Assembly: GCA_000419545.1 (NCBI GenBank)
Contig: ATTF01000002.1
Coordinates: 4,093-68,092 of the forward strand
Source: Candidatus Pelagibacter ubique HIMB058
GTDB taxonomy: Bacteria; Pseudomonadota; Alphaproteobacteria; Pelagibacterales; Pelagibacteraceae
Length of the DNA: 64,000 nt
Direction: 5' to 3'
The position numbers and the translations under genes are program-made. Within the stretch, counting starts at the first letter, position 1; each line of letters opens with the position of its first letter. The notes below the pieces were generated by a model that saw only the letters and a list, made by a program, of their open reading frames with translations, was not told the DNA's origin and ran no database searches. This document shows, in pieces, positions 1,508 to 20,617 of this stretch.

Positions 1508-3368
1508 TTTTAAAAAATCTTAATAGACCTCCAATAACAACCATGATGACAGAAAGCCAAATCCAGATCATTAAAGGTTTTTCTTGAAACTTAATATTAT
1601 AATAATCTGATCTATCAATATTACTCATGGTCAAATAATGATCTTTAATAAAGCTTGTTTTGATTGAAGCTTCATAAGTAAGAGTTTTTGGATTACTGTA
1701 AATTCGAATCTCTGGTTTTAAAATATTTCTGTCTTTTCCATTAAATATTTCAAATTCACCAACTACAGCTTGATAATTGGTAAAATCTTTTAATTCTAAG
1801 TTTTTAAATTCAATTGAATAGTTGTCAAATTTTTTTATCTCACCAATTTTCATATTGTAATCTTTTTCGATTGAGAAAATGTAATTTAACCCGATAAACA
1901 AAACTAAAAACCCAAATGATCCATGTGAAATTATTCTACCTAAGTCTAAATTGTTCTTCTTTTTTGAAACAACAAAATCTTTTATGGACGAGAGAATTAG
2001 AAATAAAGCACTTATAATTATAAAATTTGATAAAATACTAAAATTTTTAAAAAATAAAATAATCATCAAATTTATCAAAATTGCTCCGAGCAATATTGAA
2101 AAATATAATTTAATGTTATCAAATTTATTTTTTATCCAGCTTGCATTTGGTCCTATGGACATAAAAATTAAAAAAATTACAACTACTGGAAAAATAATGG
2201 CGTTATAAAAAGGGGGGCCTACAGAAATTTTATTTTGGGAGAGAGCATCAGTAAAAATCGGATAAATTGTTCCTAGTAAAACTGTTACTAAGTAAAACAT
2301 CATGAACCAATTATTAACTAAAACAAACGTTTCTTTGCTGTTTTGATTCAAATTATAATTTTCAGTTTTGTATTTCTTAAATAAAAGAAAAACTGAACCA
2401 AAAATCATTAAACTTAAAAATGATAATATGTAAATTCCTCTTGTAGGATCACTAGCGAAAGTGTGCACTGAGTTTAAAATTCCAGACCTAACTAAAAATG
2501 TTCCTGTAACACTTAAAATAAAAGTCATTAGGCATAAAATAATTACCCAAAAATAAAATAAATTTCTTTTTTCAAAAACTATGATGGAATGAAATAAAGC
2601 TGTCATTGCAAACCAAGGGAGCAAAGAGGCATTTTCAACTGGATCCCAAAACCAAAACCCTCCCCAGCCTAATTCATAGTAAGCCCATATAGATCCAACT
2701 AAAATTCCAAGAGTTTGAAAACTCCAAGAAATTAATATCCAATTTTTTATTGAACTAGCAAAATTTTTTTCAGAATAATTAGAGATTAAAGATGCAATTG
2801 CAGCAGAAAAATAAATAGATGAACCCACAAAGCCTATATAGAGTAAAGGCGGGTGTATAGCTAAAGCAGGATCTTGTAAGATTGGATTTAATCCGAGGCC
2901 CTCTTTAGGAATTGGAGATAAAGGACTAAACGGATTAGAATTTAGCAAAATAAAAAATAAAAATCCTATTATTAAAATATTCTGAATAATTAATGTTAGT
3001 AGTCTAAATTTTTTTGGGTGATTTTTATTGTAAATTAAAAATAAGAATGAAAAAATTGATAAAATAATTACCCATAACATTAAGCTTCCTTCGTGATTTC
3101 CCCAGGTACCAGTAATCTTATAGAAAATTGGCTTCATTGAATGTGAGTTTTGATAAACTGTAATTAAAGAAAAATCAGAAACAATAAATGCAGCTATTAA
3201 AGTGAAAAAACAAATTATAACTGTAGTGCTTTGAATTAAACTTAACTGAAAAATATGCTTAGTAATTTGATTGCCATTTAATTTAAGATTTTTATTTGAG
3301 AGATAAATAATACTTAAGCTTAAAACTATACTTGCAAATAATAATAAATTTCCAAAATTACTTATCAT
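1491..3368 (-). CDS. ccmF: Cytochrome c heme lyase subunit CcmF
   Basis: 625-aa polytopic membrane protein with the WGGFWFWDPVEN tryptophan-rich (WWD) motif; lies in the ccm operon. Confidence 0.9.
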   Translation of the reverse strand: MISNFGNLLLFASIVLSLSIIYLSNKNLKLNGNQITKHIFQLSLIQSTTVIICFFTLIAAFIVSDFSLITVYQNSHSMKPIFYKITGTWGNHEGSLMLWVIILSIFSFLFLIYNKNHPKKFRLLTLIIQNILIIGFLFFILLNSNPFSPLSPIPKEGLGLNPILQDPALAIHPPLLYIGFVGSSIYFSAAIASLISNYSEKNFASSIKNWILISWSFQTLGILVGSIWAYYELGWGGFWFWDPVENASLLPWFAMTALFHSIIVFEKRNLFYFWVIILCLMTFILSVTGTFLVRSGILNSVHTFASDPTRGIYILSFLSLMIFGSVFLLFKKYKTENYNLNQNSKETFVLVNNWFMMFYLVTVLLGTIYPIFTDALSQNKISVGPPFYNAIIFPVVVIFLIFMSIGPNASWIKNKFDNIKLYFSILLGAILINLMIILFFKNFSILSNFIIISALFLILSSIKDFVVSKKKNNLDLGRIISHGSFGFLVLFIGLNYIFSIEKDYNMKIGEIKKFDNYSIEFKNLELKDFTNYQAVVGEFEIFNGKDRNILKPEIRIYSNPKTLTYEASIKTSFIKDHYLTMSNIDRSDYYNIKFQEKPLMIWIWLSVIMVVIGGLLRFFKNAKNS

Positions 3369-3786
3369 TGTTCTTCATAATAGATTGTAACTCGGGTGGC
3401 ATATAATTTTCATCATGTTTTGCTAATATTCTATCAGCTATAAAAAATGATTTATCTTGTAGTTTGCCTTCAGCGACAACACCTTTTTCTTCAGAAAATA
3501 AATTTGGCACAGTTCCGCTATAACTAATCATTAATTCATTTTTAAAATCTGTAATAACAAATTTTATCTCTTGCTCTTTAATTTCGAGAGAGTTTTTCTT
3601 TACCATTCCTCCAACTCTGATTTTTTTTTTAGAAAATATATCTTGATCGTTTTTAATATCTGTCGGGGATTTAAAATATAAAATGTTCTTATCTAAGGTT
3701 TGAAGAATAAAAAAAATTGCTAAAATTGATACTAACAATAAAGCAGCTAAAAGAGACGCTCTTTTTTTAACTTTCTTTTGAAGCAT
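3358..3786 (-). CDS. ccmE: Heme chaperone CcmE
   Basis: N-terminal TM anchor and C-terminal LAKHDENYMPPE heme-binding motif. Confidence 0.9.
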   Translation of the reverse strand: MLQKKVKKRASLLAALLLVSILAIFFILQTLDKNILYFKSPTDIKNDQDIFSKKKIRVGGMVKKNSLEIKEQEIKFVITDFKNELMISYSGTVPNLFSEEKGVVAEGKLQDKSFFIADRILAKHDENYMPPELQSIMKNNDK

Positions 3787-13105: not shown

Positions 13106-14022
13106 TTTTTTTTAAATTTATCTCCAGCTTTTAATAGAATCTCTTCACCAACTTTTTTTCCAATTGTTATTGCTTCGTTCAAATTTCCAGTAGTTTCACA
13201 TTCAAAACTCTCATCGCCTATATCAGAAAACAATTGAGCTCTTAATGTTATCTTATTATTTTTAATAATAGCTAAACCTCCAATAGCGGTCTCACAATCT
13301 CCTCCTATTGTTTTTAATAGTGATCTCTCGGCTTTTGCACAAAGTTCTGTCTCATTATGATTAATCTTTTTTAAAATACTTTTAATATTATCATTATCCT
13401 TTTTACATTGAACCGCTATTACACCTTGACCTACAGCTGGCAAAACTCGATTTGTTTCAAATGTAAAAGCTATTTGATTATCCAAATTTAAAGACCTTAA
13501 ACCTGCGGCAGCTAAAATAATACCATCTAGTTCATTATCGTCTATTTTTCTTATTCTGGTATCAATATTCCCTCGAATATTTTCAACTGTAATTTTTCTA
13601 CTAATCTTTTTTAGTTGTAATTCTCTTCTCCGAGAACTTGATCCAATTTTTAATTGGTTGTTTAATTCTTCTAAGTTTTTAATTTTTTTGCTAACGATGA
13701 CGTCTCTAAAATCATTTCTTTTTATAAAAGCTCCAATTAGAAGATTTTTATTCTCAATTGATTCCATATCTTTTAATGAGTGAACAGCTATATTAATTTC
13801 ATCTTTTAACAATTTTTCTTCAATCTCTTTACAGAACAAATTTTTACCTCCAATTTCAGAAAGTTTTATGTCTTGATTAATGTCACCTGAAGTTTTTATG
13901 GTCTGAACGGTTATATCTTTCTCTTTGAGATTTTTATTCTCTTGTAATAATAAATCTTTAACTTTAGCTACATAAGCTAATGAAAGTTTACTACCTCTTG
14001 CGCCAATTGTAATTTTAGTCAT
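13102..14022 (-). CDS. hemC: Hydroxymethylbilane synthase (porphobilinogen deaminase)
   Basis: ITIGARGSKLSLAY, IAVHSLKD, RGNIDTR and GGDCETAIG motifs. Confidence 0.9.
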   Translation of the reverse strand: MTKITIGARGSKLSLAYVAKVKDLLLQENKNLKEKDITVQTIKTSGDINQDIKLSEIGGKNLFCKEIEEKLLKDEINIAVHSLKDMESIENKNLLIGAFIKRNDFRDVIVSKKIKNLEELNNQLKIGSSSRRRELQLKKISRKITVENIRGNIDTRIRKIDDNELDGIILAAAGLRSLNLDNQIAFTFETNRVLPAVGQGVIAVQCKKDNDNIKSILKKINHNETELCAKAERSLLKTIGGDCETAIGGLAIIKNNKITLRAQLFSDIGDESFECETTGNLNEAITIGKKVGEEILLKAGDKFKKK

Positions 14023-14078
14023 TTATAGTTTATATATTTAAAAGAACTAATTTATACTATCTAATTAAAGAACGCACG

Positions 14079-15155
14079 ATGACGAAAAAATTAACTTTTT
14101 TAGGAATAGAAACTAGCTGTGACGAGACAGCTGCAGCAGTCATAAGAGAAAATGATAATGGTACTGCAGATATTTTATCTAATATTGTCTCAAGTCAAAT
14201 TGATGAACATAAAAAATTTGGTGGAGTAGTGCCAGAATTAGCAGCAAGAGCTCACCTAGAAAATATTGAGTTTATAATAGACTCTGCGTTATCTGAAAGT
14301 AAAGTTTCAATTGAAAAAATTGATGGTGTGGCTTCAACTGCAGGACCAGGGTTAATAGTATGTCTAACAGTTGGTTTGAATATTGGAAAATCTATTGCAG
14401 CTTTTGCACAAAAACCTTTTATAGGGGTAAATCATTTAGAAGGGCATGCTTTAAGCCCTGGCTTGATTGAAAAAATAAATTTTCCTTATTTATTATTGTT
14501 AATATCTGGCGGTCACACTCAATATTTAATAGTTAAAGATATAAACGAGTACGAACAATTAGGTACTACGATCGATGATGCTCTAGGAGAAGCATTTGAT
14601 AAAACTTCTAAAATGTTGGATTTAGGTTATCCAGGTGGACCTAGTGTAGAAAAATTTGCAAAACTAGGTAATGAAAATTTTTTTAAATTACCAGAGCCAA
14701 TTATTAATAAAGCTGGATGTAATTTATCTTTCGCCGGCCTTAAAACAGCAGTGTTACGTGAGTCTAAAAAGATTAATGGAGAGGAAAAATTAAAATATAA
14801 TTTAGCTGCTTCTTTTCAAAAAACTATTAATAAAATTTTATATAAAAAAACTAAAATTGCAGCTGAAATGTTTATTGAAAAAACAAAAGTAAAAAATTTT
14901 CATTTTGTTGTAGCAGGTGGTGTTGCTGCCAACAATTCAATACGAGAAAATATTCTTAAACTTTCAAAAGAAATAGGATTTAAGGCTATATTTCCGGATA
15001 AACAATTTTGCGGTGATAATGCAGCAATGATTGCTTGGGCCGGAATACAAAGATTTAAAAAAAATCTTATCAGTGAAATTAATGTACCTGCTAGATCTAG
15101 ATGGCCTCTAGATAGCAAGGCTCCTTACATGAAAGGACCAGGTTTAAAACTTTAA
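14079..15155 (+). CDS. tsaD: tRNA N6-adenosine threonylcarbamoyltransferase TsaD
   Basis: LGIETSCDETAAAV, GVNHLEGH, LLISGGHTQ and GDNAAMIAW motifs. Confidence 0.9.
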   Translation: MTKKLTFLGIETSCDETAAAVIRENDNGTADILSNIVSSQIDEHKKFGGVVPELAARAHLENIEFIIDSALSESKVSIEKIDGVASTAGPGLIVCLTVGLNIGKSIAAFAQKPFIGVNHLEGHALSPGLIEKINFPYLLLLISGGHTQYLIVKDINEYEQLGTTIDDALGEAFDKTSKMLDLGYPGGPSVEKFAKLGNENFFKLPEPIINKAGCNLSFAGLKTAVLRESKKINGEEKLKYNLAASFQKTINKILYKKTKIAAEMFIEKTKVKNFHFVVAGGVAANNSIRENILKLSKEIGFKAIFPDKQFCGDNAAMIAWAGIQRFKKNLISEINVPARSRWPLDSKAPYMKGPGLKL

Positions 15156-15577
15156 TGCAGTATTGGTTAATGAAATCTGAACCAGATGTTTGGTCTTTAG
15201 ATCAGCAAGAAAAGGCGGGAGCTAAAGGAGCAACCTGGGATGGTGTAAGAAACTATCAAGCTGCCAATAATCTTAAAAAAATGAGAATTGGAGATTTATG
15301 TTATTTTTATCATTCCAATATAGGCAAAGAAATTGTGGGAGTAGTAGAAGTTATCAAAGAAGCTTTTATTGATAAAACTGACCTTAAAAAAAGATTTGTT
15401 GCTGTCCAAGTTAAGTTTAAAAAACGCCTAAAAATTCCTATTACCTTAGAAAAAATCAAAAAAAATAAGGCTCTTTCTCGTCTACCTCTTATTAGACAAA
15501 GCAGGTTGTCAGTTATGCCGATTGATTATAAAAGCTGGAAAATAATAGATAAGATGAGTAGAATAAAATCTGTTTAG
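15155..15577 (+). CDS. EVE (PUA-like, DUF55) domain protein
   Basis: [14 protein letters not shown]...[15 protein letters not shown]...YHS is the classic EVE-domain N-terminus. Confidence 0.75.
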
Positions 15578-15585
15578 GAGAAATT

Positions 15586-17727
15586 GTGGCTAAAAAGAAA
15601 AAAAAGAAAAAAGTAAAAAAATCTAGAAAAGCATTAAAGTCTAGAAAAAAAACTAGAAAAGCTAAAAAATCTAGAAAAGCTTCAAAGCCTAGAAAAAATA
15701 AAAGAAAAAAATCTAAAACAAAATCTAGAAAATCTAAAAAACCTAGAAAATTAAGTTTTAAAGCTCCTAAATTAGTTGAAGATGGAGATGGAAAATCTCT
15801 AATTAAAGTTTCTGATAGTTGGGCTAACCACGCATATGTAAATAAATCTCAATATTTAAAAAAGTACAAGCTTTCAATTAAAGAAAATGAAAAGTTTTGG
15901 GCTAAAGAAGGAAAAAGAATTACCTGGATTAAAAAATACTCAAAAATTAAAGATGTAAAATATAGCAAGGAAGAAGTTAAAATTAAATGGTACTACGATG
16001 GAACTCTTAATGCTTCTGCTAACTGTATAGATCGTCATCTTAAAAAAAATGCGAGCAAAACTGCAATTATCTGGGTTGGGGATGATCCTGCAGATACTAA
16101 GAAAATTTCCTATAAAGAATTACATCAAAACGTAAGTAAAGTTGCTAACGGACTAAAAAGTTTAGGAATTCAAAAAGGTGATAGGGTAACAATTTATCTT
16201 ACAATGATTCCAGAACTAGCTTATGTAATGCTAGCTTGTGCAAGAATAGGTGCTGTTCATTCAATTATTTTTGGAGGCTTTTCTCCAGACTCAATAGCCA
16301 CAAGGATTAATGACTGTGAGTCTGATTACTTAATTACAGCAGATGAAGGGGTAAGAGGAGGTAAAATTATTCCTCTTAAGAAAATTGCAGATGAAGCTCT
16401 GCAACAATGTCCAAATGTAAAAAAATGCGTTGTTGTAGAAAGAACTGGAAATCAAGTTAATTGGAACGATGAAAGAGATATTTCATATAAAAAATTAATT
16501 TCCTCTATGCCTACAAAATGTGATCCTGAAGAAATGAGTGCAGAGGATCCTTTATTTATTCTTTATACTTCTGGTTCAACTGGCAAGCCTAAAGGAGTTT
16601 TACATACTACAGGCGGTTACATGGTTTATGCTTCAATGACACATCAATATATTTTTGATTATAAACCTAACGATATCTACTGGTGTACTGCTGATATTGG
16701 ATGGGTAACAGGACATAGTTATATTATTTATGGTCCACTTGCTAATGGAGCTACAACAATAATGTTTGAAGGAGTTCCAAATTATCCAGACAATTCAAGA
16801 TGGTGGCAAATTGTAGATAAACATAAAGTTAATATATTTTATACTGCTCCTACTGCAATTCGTGCTTTGATGAGAGAAGGCGATGGTCCAGTTAAAAAAA
16901 CTAGCAGAAAATCTTTAAAACTACTTGGAACAGTTGGTGAGCCAATAAATCCTGAAGCATGGATGTGGTATTATAAAACTGTTGGTGACTCAAGATGCCC
17001 AATAGTTGATACGTGGTGGCAAACTGAAACTGGAGGTATATTAATTGCACCTCAACCAGGAGCCATTGATTTAAAACCTGGCTCTGCAACTAAACCTTTC
17101 TATGGAATAAAACCTTTATTAGTAGATAAAGACGGGAAAATTATAAAAGGCGAGGGACAAGGAAGATTATGTATGGCTGGTTCTTGGCCTGGACAAATGA
17201 GAACTGTTTACGGTGATCACCAAAGATTTATCGATACATATTTTTCTCAATTTGATGGAAAGTATTTTACTGGTGACGGCTGCAGGAGAGATAAAGATGG
17301 TTACTATTGGATTACAGGACGTGTTGATGATGTAATTATTGTATCTGGACATAACCTTGGTACTGCTGAAATAGAAAGCGCTTTTGTTGCTCATCCAAAA
17401 GTAGCTGAGGCTGCTGTTGTTGGTTTTCCACACAGTATAAAAGGAAACGGATTATATTGTTATGTAACTCTTAATGCTGGAGAAAATCCTACTGGCGATT
17501 TAGAACGAGATTTAAAACAGTGGGTAAGAAAACAAATCGGTCCTATTTGTTATCCTGATGTAATTCAATTTGCTCCAGGTTTACCTAAAACAAGATCTGG
17601 AAAAATTATGAGAAGAATTTTAAGAAAGATTGCAGCAAACGAACCAGATAATTTAGGTGACACTACAACTTTGGCTGACCCAAGTGTGGTTACTTCATTA
17701 GTAGAAAATAGACAAAATAGAGATTAA
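15586..17727 (+). CDS. acs: Acetyl-CoA synthetase with a ~55-aa poly-Lys/Arg N-terminal extension
   Basis: [25 protein letters not shown] and SGKIMRR motifs. GTG start at 15586 lies 5 nt after AGGAG (15576-15580). I see no in-frame ATG, GTG or TTG between this start and the conserved Acs core, which begins around residue 70. Confidence 0.9.
15621..15750 (+). repeat. In-frame degenerate tandem repeats: seven copies of CTAGAAAA encoding [S/T/P]-R-K units
   Basis: I counted seven CTAGAAAA copies by eye, starting at about 15623, 15641, 15653, 15671, 15689, 15725 and 15743. All are in the acs reading frame. Confidence 0.8.
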
Positions 17728-18353
17728 TTAAATTTTAAATTTTTAGTTAATTTTTTAAATTCATCAATTTTTAAATTCCACTTTAATCTCATTGAATTTA
17801 AAACTATTTCTTTATCTAAAGTTTTAAGTTCGTCTGCAATTGGAGCCCAGTTGTAAAGCGCTAAGCAGCTTTCTTTAAAAGGATTTTCTAAATAATATTT
17901 ATTAAAATCTATTTTTTCATATCGATTTAAAAATTCTTTTTTTGCTCTTTGGTAAATTTCGTCTGTTAACCCGTTTAATTTCTCATTTTCAATAATTTCT
18001 AGATAAATTTCTTTACAATCATTTTCTTTAAGATTTTTTTCTACCATCAAATATGAGTATGCATAAAAAGCACAGTCTGCTATTGCAGCCATGTAGATGT
18101 TCCATTTGGCAATATTTATTGATTTTGAAAAAACATCATCTTCAACCATTGCTGTAAACTTAACGCCTATTCTCGTCTTCAAATAACCATACAAAGTTGT
18201 CTGGGTGACATGAGCTGATCTTTGTTGAATAAATTTTTGAAGATCTTTTTTGGAATTTATACTGCCAAAATAACTAGTAATCTTCTCAATTGGGAAAAGA
18301 TACTCCCTCATGATTTTTAGGGTATTTAGTATATGTTTAGTATTCAATTTCAC
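17724..18353 (-). CDS. Hypothetical soluble protein, function unknown
   Basis: 209-aa ORF with no TM or signal and predicted helical. I recognise no motif. It fills the gap between acs and the transporter promoter region. Confidence 0.4.
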
Positions 18354-18467
18354 GTTGTATTTAAAAAACCCTTATTTTTCTTATCTTATAGCACCTCAAT
18401 GTGGTTTTAGGGCGCTTTTTTCTCTTTAAATTCAACTCATAATGGGTATGGTTTCAACAATTAAAGT

Positions 18468-18485
18468 ACTTTTTACGTAAAAAGT
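18468..18485. promoter_or_regulatory. Perfect 18-bp palindrome ACTTTTTACGTAAAAAGT; candidate operator or 5'-UTR hairpin
   Basis: Exact inverted repeat (9+9). It ends 21 nt upstream of the ATG at 18507 and just upstream of the GGGGGA Shine-Dalgarno. Confidence 0.3.
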
Positions 18486-18506
18486 TAAAAATAAATAGGG
18501 GGAAAT

Positions 18507-18764
18507 ATGTCAAATAAAGACGCATATTGGGAAAAGACCAAGAACCACATGTTTGTAACATTGGCTCTTTGGGCTTTCTTCTCATTGGTCATTTTCATGT
18601 TTGGTTCTGAACTGAACACGATGTCTTTTCTTGGCTATCCTTTAGCATATTACATGACAGCGCAAGGTTCACTTCTTGCATTCGTGATAATTTTGTTTTG
18701 GACAGCAAATAAACAAGAAAAAATCGACGAAGAACATGGCTTCTCAGAGAGAGGAGATGACTAA
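18507..18764 (+). CDS. DUF4212 small membrane subunit of a sodium:solute symporter
   Basis: 85-aa two-TM protein (YWEKTKN...LGYPLAYYMTAQGS). Its stop overlaps the start of the large SSS gene (TAATG), the typical DUF4212 arrangement. Confidence 0.75.
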   Translation: MSNKDAYWEKTKNHMFVTLALWAFFSLVIFMFGSELNTMSFLGYPLAYYMTAQGSLLAFVIILFWTANKQEKIDEEHGFSERGDD

Positions 18765-20617
18765 TGTTTAAAGGTGATTTTATAAAAAACCTTCCTAAAA
18801 TATACGGGACCTACACTGGTGGTTTCTTAGTATTCATCATTTTGATGGCTATTGCGGAACAAGCAGGTGTGTCAGCTAAAAACATCGGAGTGATGTTCGT
18901 GGCTTTCACGGTTTTGATTTATGCCGCAATCGGTTATTTATCAAGAACCATAAATGTAGATGCCTACTATGTTGCAGGAAGACAAGTGCCAACCGTATTT
19001 AACGGGATGGCGACAGCAGCTGACTGGATGTCAGGTGCTTCTTTCGTAGCCTTAGCGGGTGGAGTTTACTTTGGTGGCTATACTTATATGGCCTTCTTAG
19101 TAGGTTGGACAGGTGGATACGTACTTGTTGCAACTCTAATGGCTCCGTACTTAAGAAAATTTGGATGTTACACAGTTCCTGATTTTATCGGAACACGATA
19201 CGGTGGTAATCTTGTAAGAGCTTGCTCTGTATTCGTGCTTTTCATAGCATCATTTACTTATGTAACAGCACAAATTAACGCTACGGGAACAATTGCTTCT
19301 AGAGCTCTTGGTATTCCATTCGAAGCAGGTGTATGGGTAGGATTAATAAGTATCCTTATCTGTTCAATGCTTGGAGGGATGAGAGCCGTAACTTGGACTC
19401 AGGTTGCTCAGTACATTGTATTAATCATCGCTTACTTGATACCAGTATTCTGGATCAGTTCTAATGTTGGTGGAGGAATTTTCCCTCACTTAATGTTAGG
19501 TGATGAGGTTGCAAGACTTGGTGAACTTGAACAACAATTTGGACTAGTTAAAAACAGCGCCGCAGATATGAAAGCAGCTGGGGTACCAGGAGGATTGAAA
19601 TACATCTCTGGTTCTCACTCTGGAGTACCTGAAGGTGGAATGGCTGTCTGGAAATACTTATCGTTAGCGATTTGTATGATGGTGGGAACTGCATCGTTAC
19701 CTCATATCTTAATGAGATACTTTACAACTCCTTCTGTTAGAGCAGCAAGAAAATCAGTAGCATGGTCGCTATTCTTTATTTTCTTACTTTACTCTTCAGC
19801 GCCTATGTTAGCGACATTGTCTAAGTTGGCATTGATGGATCCAAATCTACCAACTGGAATTATTGGAAAATCTATTTCTGAAGTTCAGTCGATAGAGTGG
19901 GTGCAAAGATGGTCTGAAGTTAAACAAGTATTTATCGCAGACTTTAATGGTGACGGTATACTTCAGTTGAACGAATGGTTCATGAGAGGTGACGTTGTAG
20001 TATTAGCTACTCCAGAAGTAGCGGGACTACCGTTTGTAATCTCTGGATTAGTGTTTGCTGGAGGTATGGCTGCTGCTATGTCAACTGCAGATGGTCTTGT
20101 GTTAGCGATATCAAATGCTTTATCTCATGATATTTACTACAAAATCATAGATCCAAAAGCTGATACAGCTAAAAGACTTTTAGTTGCTCGTGTACTATTA
20201 GTAATAATCGGAGCTGCTGGTGCTTACATAGCCTCTTTCAGGCTAACAAGTATTTTAGGTTCGGTTGCTTGGGCGTTTGACTTTGCGATGTCAGGCTTAT
20301 TCTTCCCACTTGTGCTTGGTGTATGGTGGAAGAGAGCTACAAGACAAGGTGCAATCGCTGGTATCATAGCTGGAATTGTTTCAGGAACATTATACTTAAC
20401 GTGGGTGTTCCCTAAATTCTCAGTGCCAATGTGGGGCGGGGTTAATACTCCATTCTTAGGTATCGACCACTTAAGATTTGGATTAATCGGTGCTCCTATC
20501 TGTTTAGTTGTAATGGTTGTGGTTAGTTTAATGACTAAAGCGCCATCTCCTTCTGTACAGAAAATGGTAGATGATACTAGAATACCAACGGGTAAACCAA
20601 TCCTTGGTAAACAGTAG
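18764..20617 (+). CDS. Sodium:solute symporter family permease (VC_2705/ActP-like, candidate acetate/monocarboxylate transporter)
   Basis: 617-aa protein with about 13-14 TM segments. It has SSS-type motifs (YYVAGRQVP, AADWMSGASF) and is paired with DUF4212 next to acs. Confidence 0.85.
   Translation: MFKGDFIKNLPKIYGTYTGGFLVFIILMAIAEQAGVSAKNIGVMFVAFTVLIYAAIGYLSRTINVDAYYVAGRQVPTVFNGMATAADWMSGASFVALAGGVYFGGYTYMAFLVGWTGGYVLVATLMAPYLRKFGCYTVPDFIGTRYGGNLVRACSVFVLFIASFTYVTAQINATGTIASRALGIPFEAGVWVGLISILICSMLGGMRAVTWTQVAQYIVLIIAYLIPVFWISSNVGGGIFPHLMLGDEVARLGELEQQFGLVKNSAADMKAAGVPGGLKYISGSHSGVPEGGMAVWKYLSLAICMMVGTASLPHILMRYFTTPSVRAARKSVAWSLFFIFLLYSSAPMLATLSKLALMDPNLPTGIIGKSISEVQSIEWVQRWSEVKQVFIADFNGDGILQLNEWFMRGDVVVLATPEVAGLPFVISGLVFAGGMAAAMSTADGLVLAISNALSHDIYYKIIDPKADTAKRLLVARVLLVIIGAAGAYIASFRLTSILGSVAWAFDFAMSGLFFPLVLGVWWKRATRQGAIAGIIAGIVSGTLYLTWVFPKFSVPMWGGVNTPFLGIDHLRFGLIGAPICLVVMVVVSLMTKAPSPSVQKMVDDTRIPTGKPILGKQ

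Follow-up and report, generated by a model that had tools for sequence, protein, structure and literature searches.

A family-wide polybasic N-terminal tail on the acetyl-CoA synthetase of SAR11 bacteria, a candidate electrostatic tether

The acs gene and its polybasic extension

The gene considered here, acs, encodes an acetyl-CoA synthetase (Acs) and lies in a 64,000-nucleotide stretch of contig ATTF01000002.1 of Candidatus Pelagibacter ubique HIMB058, a member of the Pelagibacteraceae (SAR11 bacteria). This 64-kb stretch, which we refer to in its entirety as the window, has a G+C content of 29.9%, and the loci nearest to it are those of SAR11 single-cell genomes, whose Acs is 96% identical. 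In the product of acs, which is present once in the window, the catalytic core is joined through a linker to a dense polybasic tail at the N terminus (Table 1). The tail had been noticed in a preliminary description of the DNA, and our recount of its lysines, arginines, and absent acidic residues agrees with that description; the remainder of the tail consists of 7 Ser, 4 Ala, 2 Thr, 2 Pro, and one each of Val, Leu, Asn, and Met. The stretch free of acidic residues extends to residue 64, and the linker carries the first acidic residues and the invariant columns from K59, D66, and G69.

By its sequence, the protein is a genuine AMP-forming acetyl-CoA synthetase with a predicted activity to match. 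It contains the Pfam domains ACAS_N (residues 90 to 147), AMP-binding (149 to 534), and AMP-binding_C (595 to 673), with no Pfam family matching residues 1 to 89. The equivalog model TIGR02188 scores 1003.6 bits (cutoff, 724.95) and the model NF001208 scores 1059.4 bits (cutoff, 657), whereas propionate-CoA ligase models remain under their respective cutoffs. Residues 80 to 710 align with residues 14 to 646 of the Salmonella enzyme (PDB 2P2F), with the signature motifs seen in the alignment, and residue 14 of Escherichia coli K-12 Acs, which is 62% identical, corresponds to residue 80 of the window protein, indicating an extension of about 66 residues. Lys673 lies in the motif shared with Salmonella and aligns with K609, the catalytic lysine of that enzyme whose acetylation is regulatory. 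Thus, the window protein shares with canonical versions (E. coli; Salmonella PDB 1PG4/2P2F) the three domains, the regulatory Lys motif, and the adjacency to a gene for an SSS transporter, but differs from them in the additional N-terminal residues and in a net charge of +51 against -19 for E. coli Acs. This charge is the highest among the long open reading frames (ORFs) of the window; the tail contributes about +38, and the core, at about +15, has a value typical for the window. Pfam and NCBIfam scans of Acs found no nucleic-acid-binding domain. A Sec or Tat signal peptide was considered for the extension and rejected, as residues 1 to 79 contain no hydrophobic run.

Several features of the gene start bear on whether the tail is made. 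The preliminary description had stated that no shorter start is available, and indeed codons 2 to 110 contain no in-frame ATG, GTG, or TTG. The Shine-Dalgarno-like AGGAG, which overlaps the stop codon of the upstream gene encoding an EVE-domain protein, was said to be rare in the window. As a pentamer it is frequent (41 copies on the forward strand and 38 on the reverse), but its rarity holds for the Shine-Dalgarno position, which it occupies in only 3 of the 60 window ORFs of at least 150 residues. The same TTAGGAGAAATT-GTG context is present in the nearest orthologues (L001, L002, and L006). More generally, the starts of the orthologues sit at the equivalent position and read M-[P/A]-K-[K/R]-K-K-K-K, the stretch ahead of the core is free of internal ATG, GTG, and TTG codons in 62 of 77 orthologues, and the frame of the tail is open in every orthologue despite its scrambled sequence. 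This comparison supports the earlier proposal that the tail is in frame with the core and almost certainly translated. A pairing is also predicted in the window between the Shine-Dalgarno region UUUAGGAG and CUCCUAAA (CUCCU), located in the F-K-A-P codons just past the tail (minimum free energy z = -2.8), in a fold that would loop out the whole tail-coding region. It is probably due to chance, as 8 of the 10 clade members compared lack the complement.

The DNA of the tail is repetitive at more than one scale. All seven copies of CTAGAAAA listed in the preliminary description were located, and each encodes [S/T/P]-R-K through an NCT codon followed by AGA and AAA; the rest of the forward strand of the window has three copies. 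These seven copies are held within three degenerate direct repeats, of which the other two are 83% and 71% identical to the reference copy. Tandem Repeats Finder likewise reports periods of 18 and 48 nt, the latter with 2.4 copies, 83% matches, and a score of 152. We therefore keep the earlier idea that the tail grew by repeat expansion, which is also borne out by perfect tandem copies in other lineages (see below), but not the notion that slippage acted on the copy number of CTAGAAAA; this unit is best read as a codon-usage footprint of the [S/T/P]-Arg-Lys triplet rather than as a slippage unit. Runs of A in the tail DNA of the window are no longer than 8.

Table 1. Features of the acs locus (positions are those of the window)
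Feature	Position	Strand	Remarks
acs ORF	15586-17727	+	GTG start, 713 aa
AGGAG, Shine-Dalgarno-like element	15576-15580	+	5 nt before the acs GTG
acs GTG start codon	15586-15588	+	Earliest start past the upstream in-frame stop
Dense polybasic tail, residues 1-55	15586-15750	+	28 K, 8 R, no D/E
Degenerate 48-nt (16-codon) direct repeats, three	15598-15645, 15646-15693, 15700-15747	+	Hold the seven CTAGAAAA copies
CTAGAAAA copies in the tail, seven	15623, 15641, 15653, 15671, 15689, 15725, 15743	+	Each encodes [S/T/P]-R-K
Linker, residues 56-79	15751-15822	+	Clade-conserved; joins tail to core
Acs catalytic core, residues 80-713	15823-17727	+	Pfam, TIGR02188, alignments
Lys673 codon	17602-17604	+	Invariant column; 11-residue motif identical in Salmonella Acs
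Shine-Dalgarno region UUUAGGAG	15572-15580		Predicted to pair with CUCCUAAA
CUCCUAAA	15764-15772		Just past the tail
tsaD	14079-15155		Stop overlaps the EVE-domain gene ATG
EVE-domain gene	15155-15577		TAG stop at 15575-15577
209-aa ORF	17724-18353	-	Convergent with acs; 4-nt end overlap

Conservation, turnover, and selection in SAR11

To place the tail in an evolutionary context, we used the 120 closest protein clusters at 90% identity and the 80 best loci from species representatives of the Genome Taxonomy Database (GTDB), all of which belong to the Pelagibacteraceae and 77 of which have an analyzable N terminus. A polybasic N-terminal tail is present in 119 of the 120 clusters, in proteins of 701 to 721 residues whose tract sequences differ, and a basic tract is present in 76 of the 77 species representatives. 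The length of the tract ranges from about 10 to 73 residues, with a median of 41. The tailed versions include those of two complete genomes (L071 and L074), the isolate HIMB1838 (L045), and a member of the genus Pelagilacustribacter (L036). On this comparison, the polybasic tail characterizes SAR11 Acs throughout the family and is not a strain oddity or an artifact. The preliminary description had called for just such an alignment of orthologues, and its outcome disposes of a uniform absence of the region from them. An assembly artifact or a miscalled start, with translation beginning downstream of the tail, is suggested by nothing other than the GTG start and the unusual composition. It can be regarded as effectively refuted, given that the tail recurs independently in single-cell, metagenome-assembled, isolate, and complete genomes as well as in ENA, JGI, and Tara metagenomes, and that no canonical start lies between the tail and the residues conserved in all Acs.

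The exceptions are few. The sole orthologue without a polybasic tail, that of the single-cell genome AG-447-P03 (L050; positions 1 to 420 at a contig start), begins MFKEFKKENGNTPPE; the gene upstream of it differs, and 233 nt separate its acs start from the contig end. This locus is a natural variant, arisen by deletion or rearrangement, or else a chimera of single-cell amplification. Another locus (L020, positions 2800 to 3500) has a normal short tail followed soon after by an in-frame TAA (...KTKK*WISKA), which represents either a sequencing error or a pseudogene. Finally, the exception among the 120 clusters is the top-scoring match itself (P0001), an NCBI protein of 973 residues from a 26-kb contig, in which a FolD N terminus is followed by the C-terminal half of Acs, a short basic tract, and then the N-terminal half of Acs. 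This permuted chimera is probably a misassembly or a tandem-duplication artifact.

Beyond SAR11, the tail was not found. None of the 150 best representatives of Acs clusters at 50% identity, a broad sampling of the family that provides little resolution within the proteobacteria, has a basic N-terminal tract, and neither do E. coli Acs or the inspected structures of Salmonella Acs. A typical alphaproteobacterial Acs begins with MSEKIYDVPADW, which aligns with ...IIKVSDSW of the SAR11 proteins. The earlier remark that such a tail is not a normal feature of Acs is therefore upheld. Our full-text literature searches turned up no account of SAR11 Acs with a basic tail, nor of a Lys-repeat tail on a bacterial enzyme of central metabolism; in a preprint on Plasmodium ACS, the term lysine-rich applies to another protein. 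No second comparable polybasic tract was observed in the ORFs of the window or in those of the flanks of the 80 loci, indicating that AT bias alone is insufficient to account for the tail.

While the presence of the tail is conserved, its sequence turns over rapidly. Tandem repeats are detectable in 64 of the 77 tails, with periods that are mostly multiples of three, and some of the repeats are perfect, with 42 nt in 2.8 copies (L043) and 30 nt in 2.2 copies (L005). The true repeat units, as read from these sequences, are 18 to 48 nt long and depend on the lineage. The extension differs in length in 23% of the metagenomic variant pairs with cores at least 99% identical and in 77% of those with cores 98 to 99% identical, thus bearing out the earlier expectation of variation between strains. 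Tail identity is 0.83 where core identity is at least 97%, and it falls to about 0.55, the shuffled baseline, below a core identity of about 95%. The only position-conserved element is M-[P/A]-K-[K/R]-K-K-K-K at the extreme N terminus. Taken together, the comparisons trace the turnover of the tails to in-frame tandem duplication, insertions and deletions, and substitutions among K, R, S, and T.

What is retained in the face of this turnover is composition. Acidic residues occupy only 3 of 2,576 positions in the N-terminal extensions, counted without their last 14 residues, against 11.2% of the positions in the cores. The overall makeup of the tails is constant (K, 53%; R, 10%; S, 10%; V, 5%; I, 5%; T, 4%; P, 3%), with Ala at 2.4% and Pro at 3.3%. 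Arg, at 10%, and Glu, which is nearly absent, are each a single transition away from the AAA codon. Codon choice shows a further regularity: AAG makes up 19.6% of the Lys codons in the tails but 11.3% in the cores, and the AAG codons are placed so as to break long runs of A. The mean length of the longest run is 9.5, whereas permuting the codons of a tail among its Lys sites gives 12.2, and 84% of the tails lie below their permuted mean (Wilcoxon P = 6e-12, uncorrected for relatedness). Such placement speaks for selection that keeps the tail in frame, as opposed to a programmed slippery tract; a programmed poly(A) track, of about 11 or more uninterrupted A residues kept by selection, is not what the tails display. 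The net charges of tail and core are anticorrelated (Spearman, -0.53 over the 77 orthologues, taken from loci L001 to L078 and the window; uncorrected for phylogeny), and extension and core together have a mean charge of +42 ± 8, which hints at compensation through selection on the total charge.

These patterns weigh on two readings in which the peptide itself is of no consequence. The first is nonadaptive, with replication slippage in an AT-rich genome producing a Lys-rich insertion that is merely tolerated. The growth of the tails by tandem duplication and indels, their wide range of lengths (10 to 73 residues), and the existence of one tail-less single-cell genome are in line with it. Nevertheless, 76 of 77 species-level lineages of a streamlined organism retain the tail, acidic residues and stops are excluded even though GAA and TAA are single mutations from AAA, AAG placement is nonrandom, and the other ORFs of the window and flanks have no such tract. 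Neutral expansion is hard to reconcile with the exclusion of acids, the codon placement, and the near-universal retention, and we consider it very unlikely. In the second reading, the A-rich, purine-only 5' coding region would be an mRNA device, serving as a slow ramp or as a structure-free zone for ribosome loading, with the peptide as a tolerated by-product. This could be entertained because most orthologue leaders are A/T rich and devoid of a Shine-Dalgarno sequence, the sole position-conserved part, M-[P/A]-K-K-K-K-K, is encoded by AAA and AAG, and the tail DNA is 65% A. However, A-richness as such would allow GAA, AAT, and ATA, yet Glu and Asp are excluded while Arg, Ser, and Thr are retained. 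Moreover, the longest tails occur in the clade with the strong AGGAG, 40 to 70 codons far exceed what an initiation enhancer needs, the A-runs are kept short where a programmed slippery tract would have long ones, and the Shine-Dalgarno pairing predicted in the window is not conserved. We consider this device unlikely as well. The comparisons instead point to selection on net positive charge and an open frame, not on the sequence of the tail, and we regard it as highly probable that the tail is real, translated, and selected for its charge.

Tethering and its alternatives

The reading that we favor, though with somewhat less than even confidence in the whole, is that the tail is translated, selected for its charge, and disordered, and that as a polycation it tethers Acs to polyanions. 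Set on the moderately basic core, it would act as a nonspecific electrostatic tether, with ribosomal or other RNA and nucleoid DNA as the likeliest targets. Acs might thereby be immobilized, partitioned, or concentrated, leaving its catalytic core unaltered. Positively charged variants of GFP bind ribosomes in E. coli and diffuse up to 100-fold more slowly, and essentially all the cytoplasmic proteins of this bacterium with a charge above +10 are ribosome, RNA, or DNA associated (PMC5726854). In a modeled minimal cell with a basic proteome, positive proteins gather around ribosomes and DNA (PMC12858079). It is these results, combined with a probably disordered tail of about +38, that lead us to favor a tether. 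The helical hydrophobic moment of the tails, compared with that of composition-matched shuffles, provides no sign of an amphipathic helix (mean z = 0.38 over 62 tails, 5% of which exceed z = 2; z = 0.06 in the window), which fits a disordered polycation.

Several considerations count against tethering. The case for translation is a comparative one and the binding partner is a predicted one; judged by composition, the target could as well be anionic lipid or polyphosphate as RNA or DNA. The proteomes of SAR11 are basic overall, and the sticking to ribosomes seen in E. coli may not transfer to them quantitatively; further, binding may be weaker where a positive protein is disordered (PMC5726854). 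The AlphaFold2 model, from an alignment of 35 close orthologues that is too shallow to be informative, has a mean pLDDT of 38 and renders the tail as coil with a pLDDT of about 30. Tracts of 10 to 17 residues suffice in some lineages and the AG-447-P03 orthologue has none, suggesting that a long tail is not indispensable. Finally, a tether provides no reason why Acs alone should need one. The scan for other polybasic tails covered about 5% of a SAR11 genome.

The gene neighborhood offers a different potential anchor. The genes for a DUF4212/SSS (ActP-like) transporter lie 0.8 kb downstream of acs, and the order acs, orf209, DUF4212, SSS is kept in 75 to 78 of the 80 SAR11 loci, an arrangement resembling acs-yjcH-actP of E. 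coli. Accordingly, the tail could bind anionic lipids of the inner membrane and hold Acs by the transporter, where it would capture imported acetate. Besides the conserved gene order and its parallel in E. coli, this alternative draws on the Val, Ile, Leu, and Phe residues that make up about 13% of the tails, as in some polybasic membrane-binding segments. On the other side, amphipathic periodicity is absent, aromatic residues are nearly so (F at 1% and no W listed), and E. coli keeps the adjacency equally with a tail-less Acs; on general grounds, a cell about 0.2 µm wide would profit little from proximity of enzyme and transporter. We consider this alternative unlikely, but not negligibly so. 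The ORF of 209 residues that separates acs from the DUF4212/SSS pair had no match in a Pfam scan. It appears from its conservation to be a real gene, being kept in 78 of the 80 loci at about 48% identity.

On the other side of acs, tsaD, a tRNA-modification gene, the EVE-domain gene, and acs itself are closely packed, and this order is kept in 65 to 76 of the 80 loci. The tight packing and overlapping ends suggest cotranscription and translational coupling of tsaD, the gene for the EVE-domain protein (a PUA-like nucleic-acid-binding protein), and the tailed acs. A promoter and terminator scan returned nothing exceeding the shuffled expectation, and an Rfam scan of window positions 14000 to 19000 found no match and thus none overlapping the tail.

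A third possibility concerns the lysines themselves, about 30 of which in the tail could be acetylated, by the acetyl-AMP or acetyl-CoA of the enzyme itself or by chemical acetylation, such that the tail is neutralized and Acs is released or regulated in the fashion of histone tails. Control of Acs by acetylation is well established in other bacteria, and here a Lys-dominated tail (K:R of about 5:1) sits on an enzyme that forms an acetyl-adenylate and has the conserved regulatory Lys motif in its core. The K:R ratio, though, is what AT-rich codon bias would give (AAA versus AGA), and we assign acetylation of the tail little probability. A related and bolder scenario joins it to the tether: the cationic tail would park Acs on ribosomes, RNA, or the nucleoid, and the acetyl-AMP or acetyl-CoA that Acs itself makes would drive acetylation of the approximately 30 tail lysines, neutralizing the tail and thus releasing or retuning the enzyme. 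This is a conjecture to which we attach slightly less weight still. Bolder yet, by analogy with the tails of eukaryotic aminoacyl-tRNA synthetases and their tRNA, would be the recruitment of RNA by the tail as an acetyl acceptor.

Related tails and significance

Electrostatic tethering can be set against several better-known polybasic tails. In bacteria, Lys-repeat tails occur on Hc1 and Hc2 of Chlamydia, mycobacterial HupB, and the N-terminal extension of Deinococcus HU, as well as in the C-terminal lysine repeats of actinobacterial TopA (PMC5714199) and the N-terminal tail of Dps (PMC12642551). Like the Acs tail, itself probably disordered, these are low-complexity, acid-free, Lys-dominated, disordered regions with short in-frame repeats, whose length or repeat number varies by strain or lineage, and in both cases electrostatic binding of polyanions is presumed. 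The repeat number of chlamydial Hc2, for instance, reportedly varies between strains. Nevertheless, such tails sit on proteins that bind or process DNA, whereas Acs is an enzyme of central metabolism. They are usually rich in Ala and Pro (AKKA, PAKK), unlike the Acs tails, which are built from K, R, S, T, V, and I with 2% Ala and 3% Pro, and there is no detectable sequence homology between the two. The C-terminal domain of histone H1 is similarly comparable in its high Lys content, lack of acids, and presumed disorder. The preliminary description had drawn a likeness to SPKK and H1-like motifs, which we do not retain beyond the charge. The pattern [ST]P[KR][KR] does not occur in the window tail and is seen only twice elsewhere, in 2 of the 77 orthologue tails, and a search of Pfam with six tails of diverse sequence, at E values up to 10, returned noise alone, with no homology to linker histones or Hc1. 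With Ala and Pro scarce as well, membership in the histone H1/SPKK type is rejected.

Further parallels come from two other systems. The PhaM and PhaF phasins use histone H1-like, Lys-rich tails to attach polyhydroxybutyrate (PHB) synthase and granules to the nucleoid. Here, as proposed for Acs, a polycationic tail couples metabolic machinery to DNA, for instance to ensure its equal partitioning. However, the phasins are adaptors with AAKP-type repeats and demonstrated DNA binding, whereas in SAR11 the tail is on the enzyme itself and its binding is predicted. Eukaryotic LysRS and AspRS carry Lys-rich appended domains at their N termini and thus resemble SAR11 Acs in being adenylate-forming enzymes extended at the N terminus by a polybasic segment that their bacterial homologues lack. 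Their extensions bind tRNA nonspecifically and form amphipathic helices with a KxxxK(K/R)xxK pattern, whereas the Acs tail lacks helical periodicity. They also have a clear polyanionic substrate, while we know of no nucleic-acid substrate for Acs.

SAR11 bacteria are the most abundant in the ocean and are textbook cases of genome and nitrogen streamlining. It is in this setting that 76 of 77 lineages pay for 10 to 73 nitrogen-costly, Lys/Arg-rich residues on one carbon-assimilation enzyme. That so costly a tail is kept, with its charge and frame guarded, points to a real cellular function. Practically, the tail marks acs genes of the SAR11 lineage in metagenomes, it escapes tryptic proteomics, and constructs made with and without it may behave differently in heterologous expression and in kinetic studies of SAR11 Acs. 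If the acetylation-driven version of the tether were true, the tail would be a protein-intrinsic sensor of acetate or acetyl-CoA in a regulator-poor, streamlined bacterium. More generally, if Acs is indeed tethered to ribosomes or the nucleoid, it would represent a clear case of electrostatic subcellular organization of metabolism in a cell that is among the smallest of free-living ones, and would bear on how very basic proteomes cope with the stickiness of ribosomes (PMC5726854).

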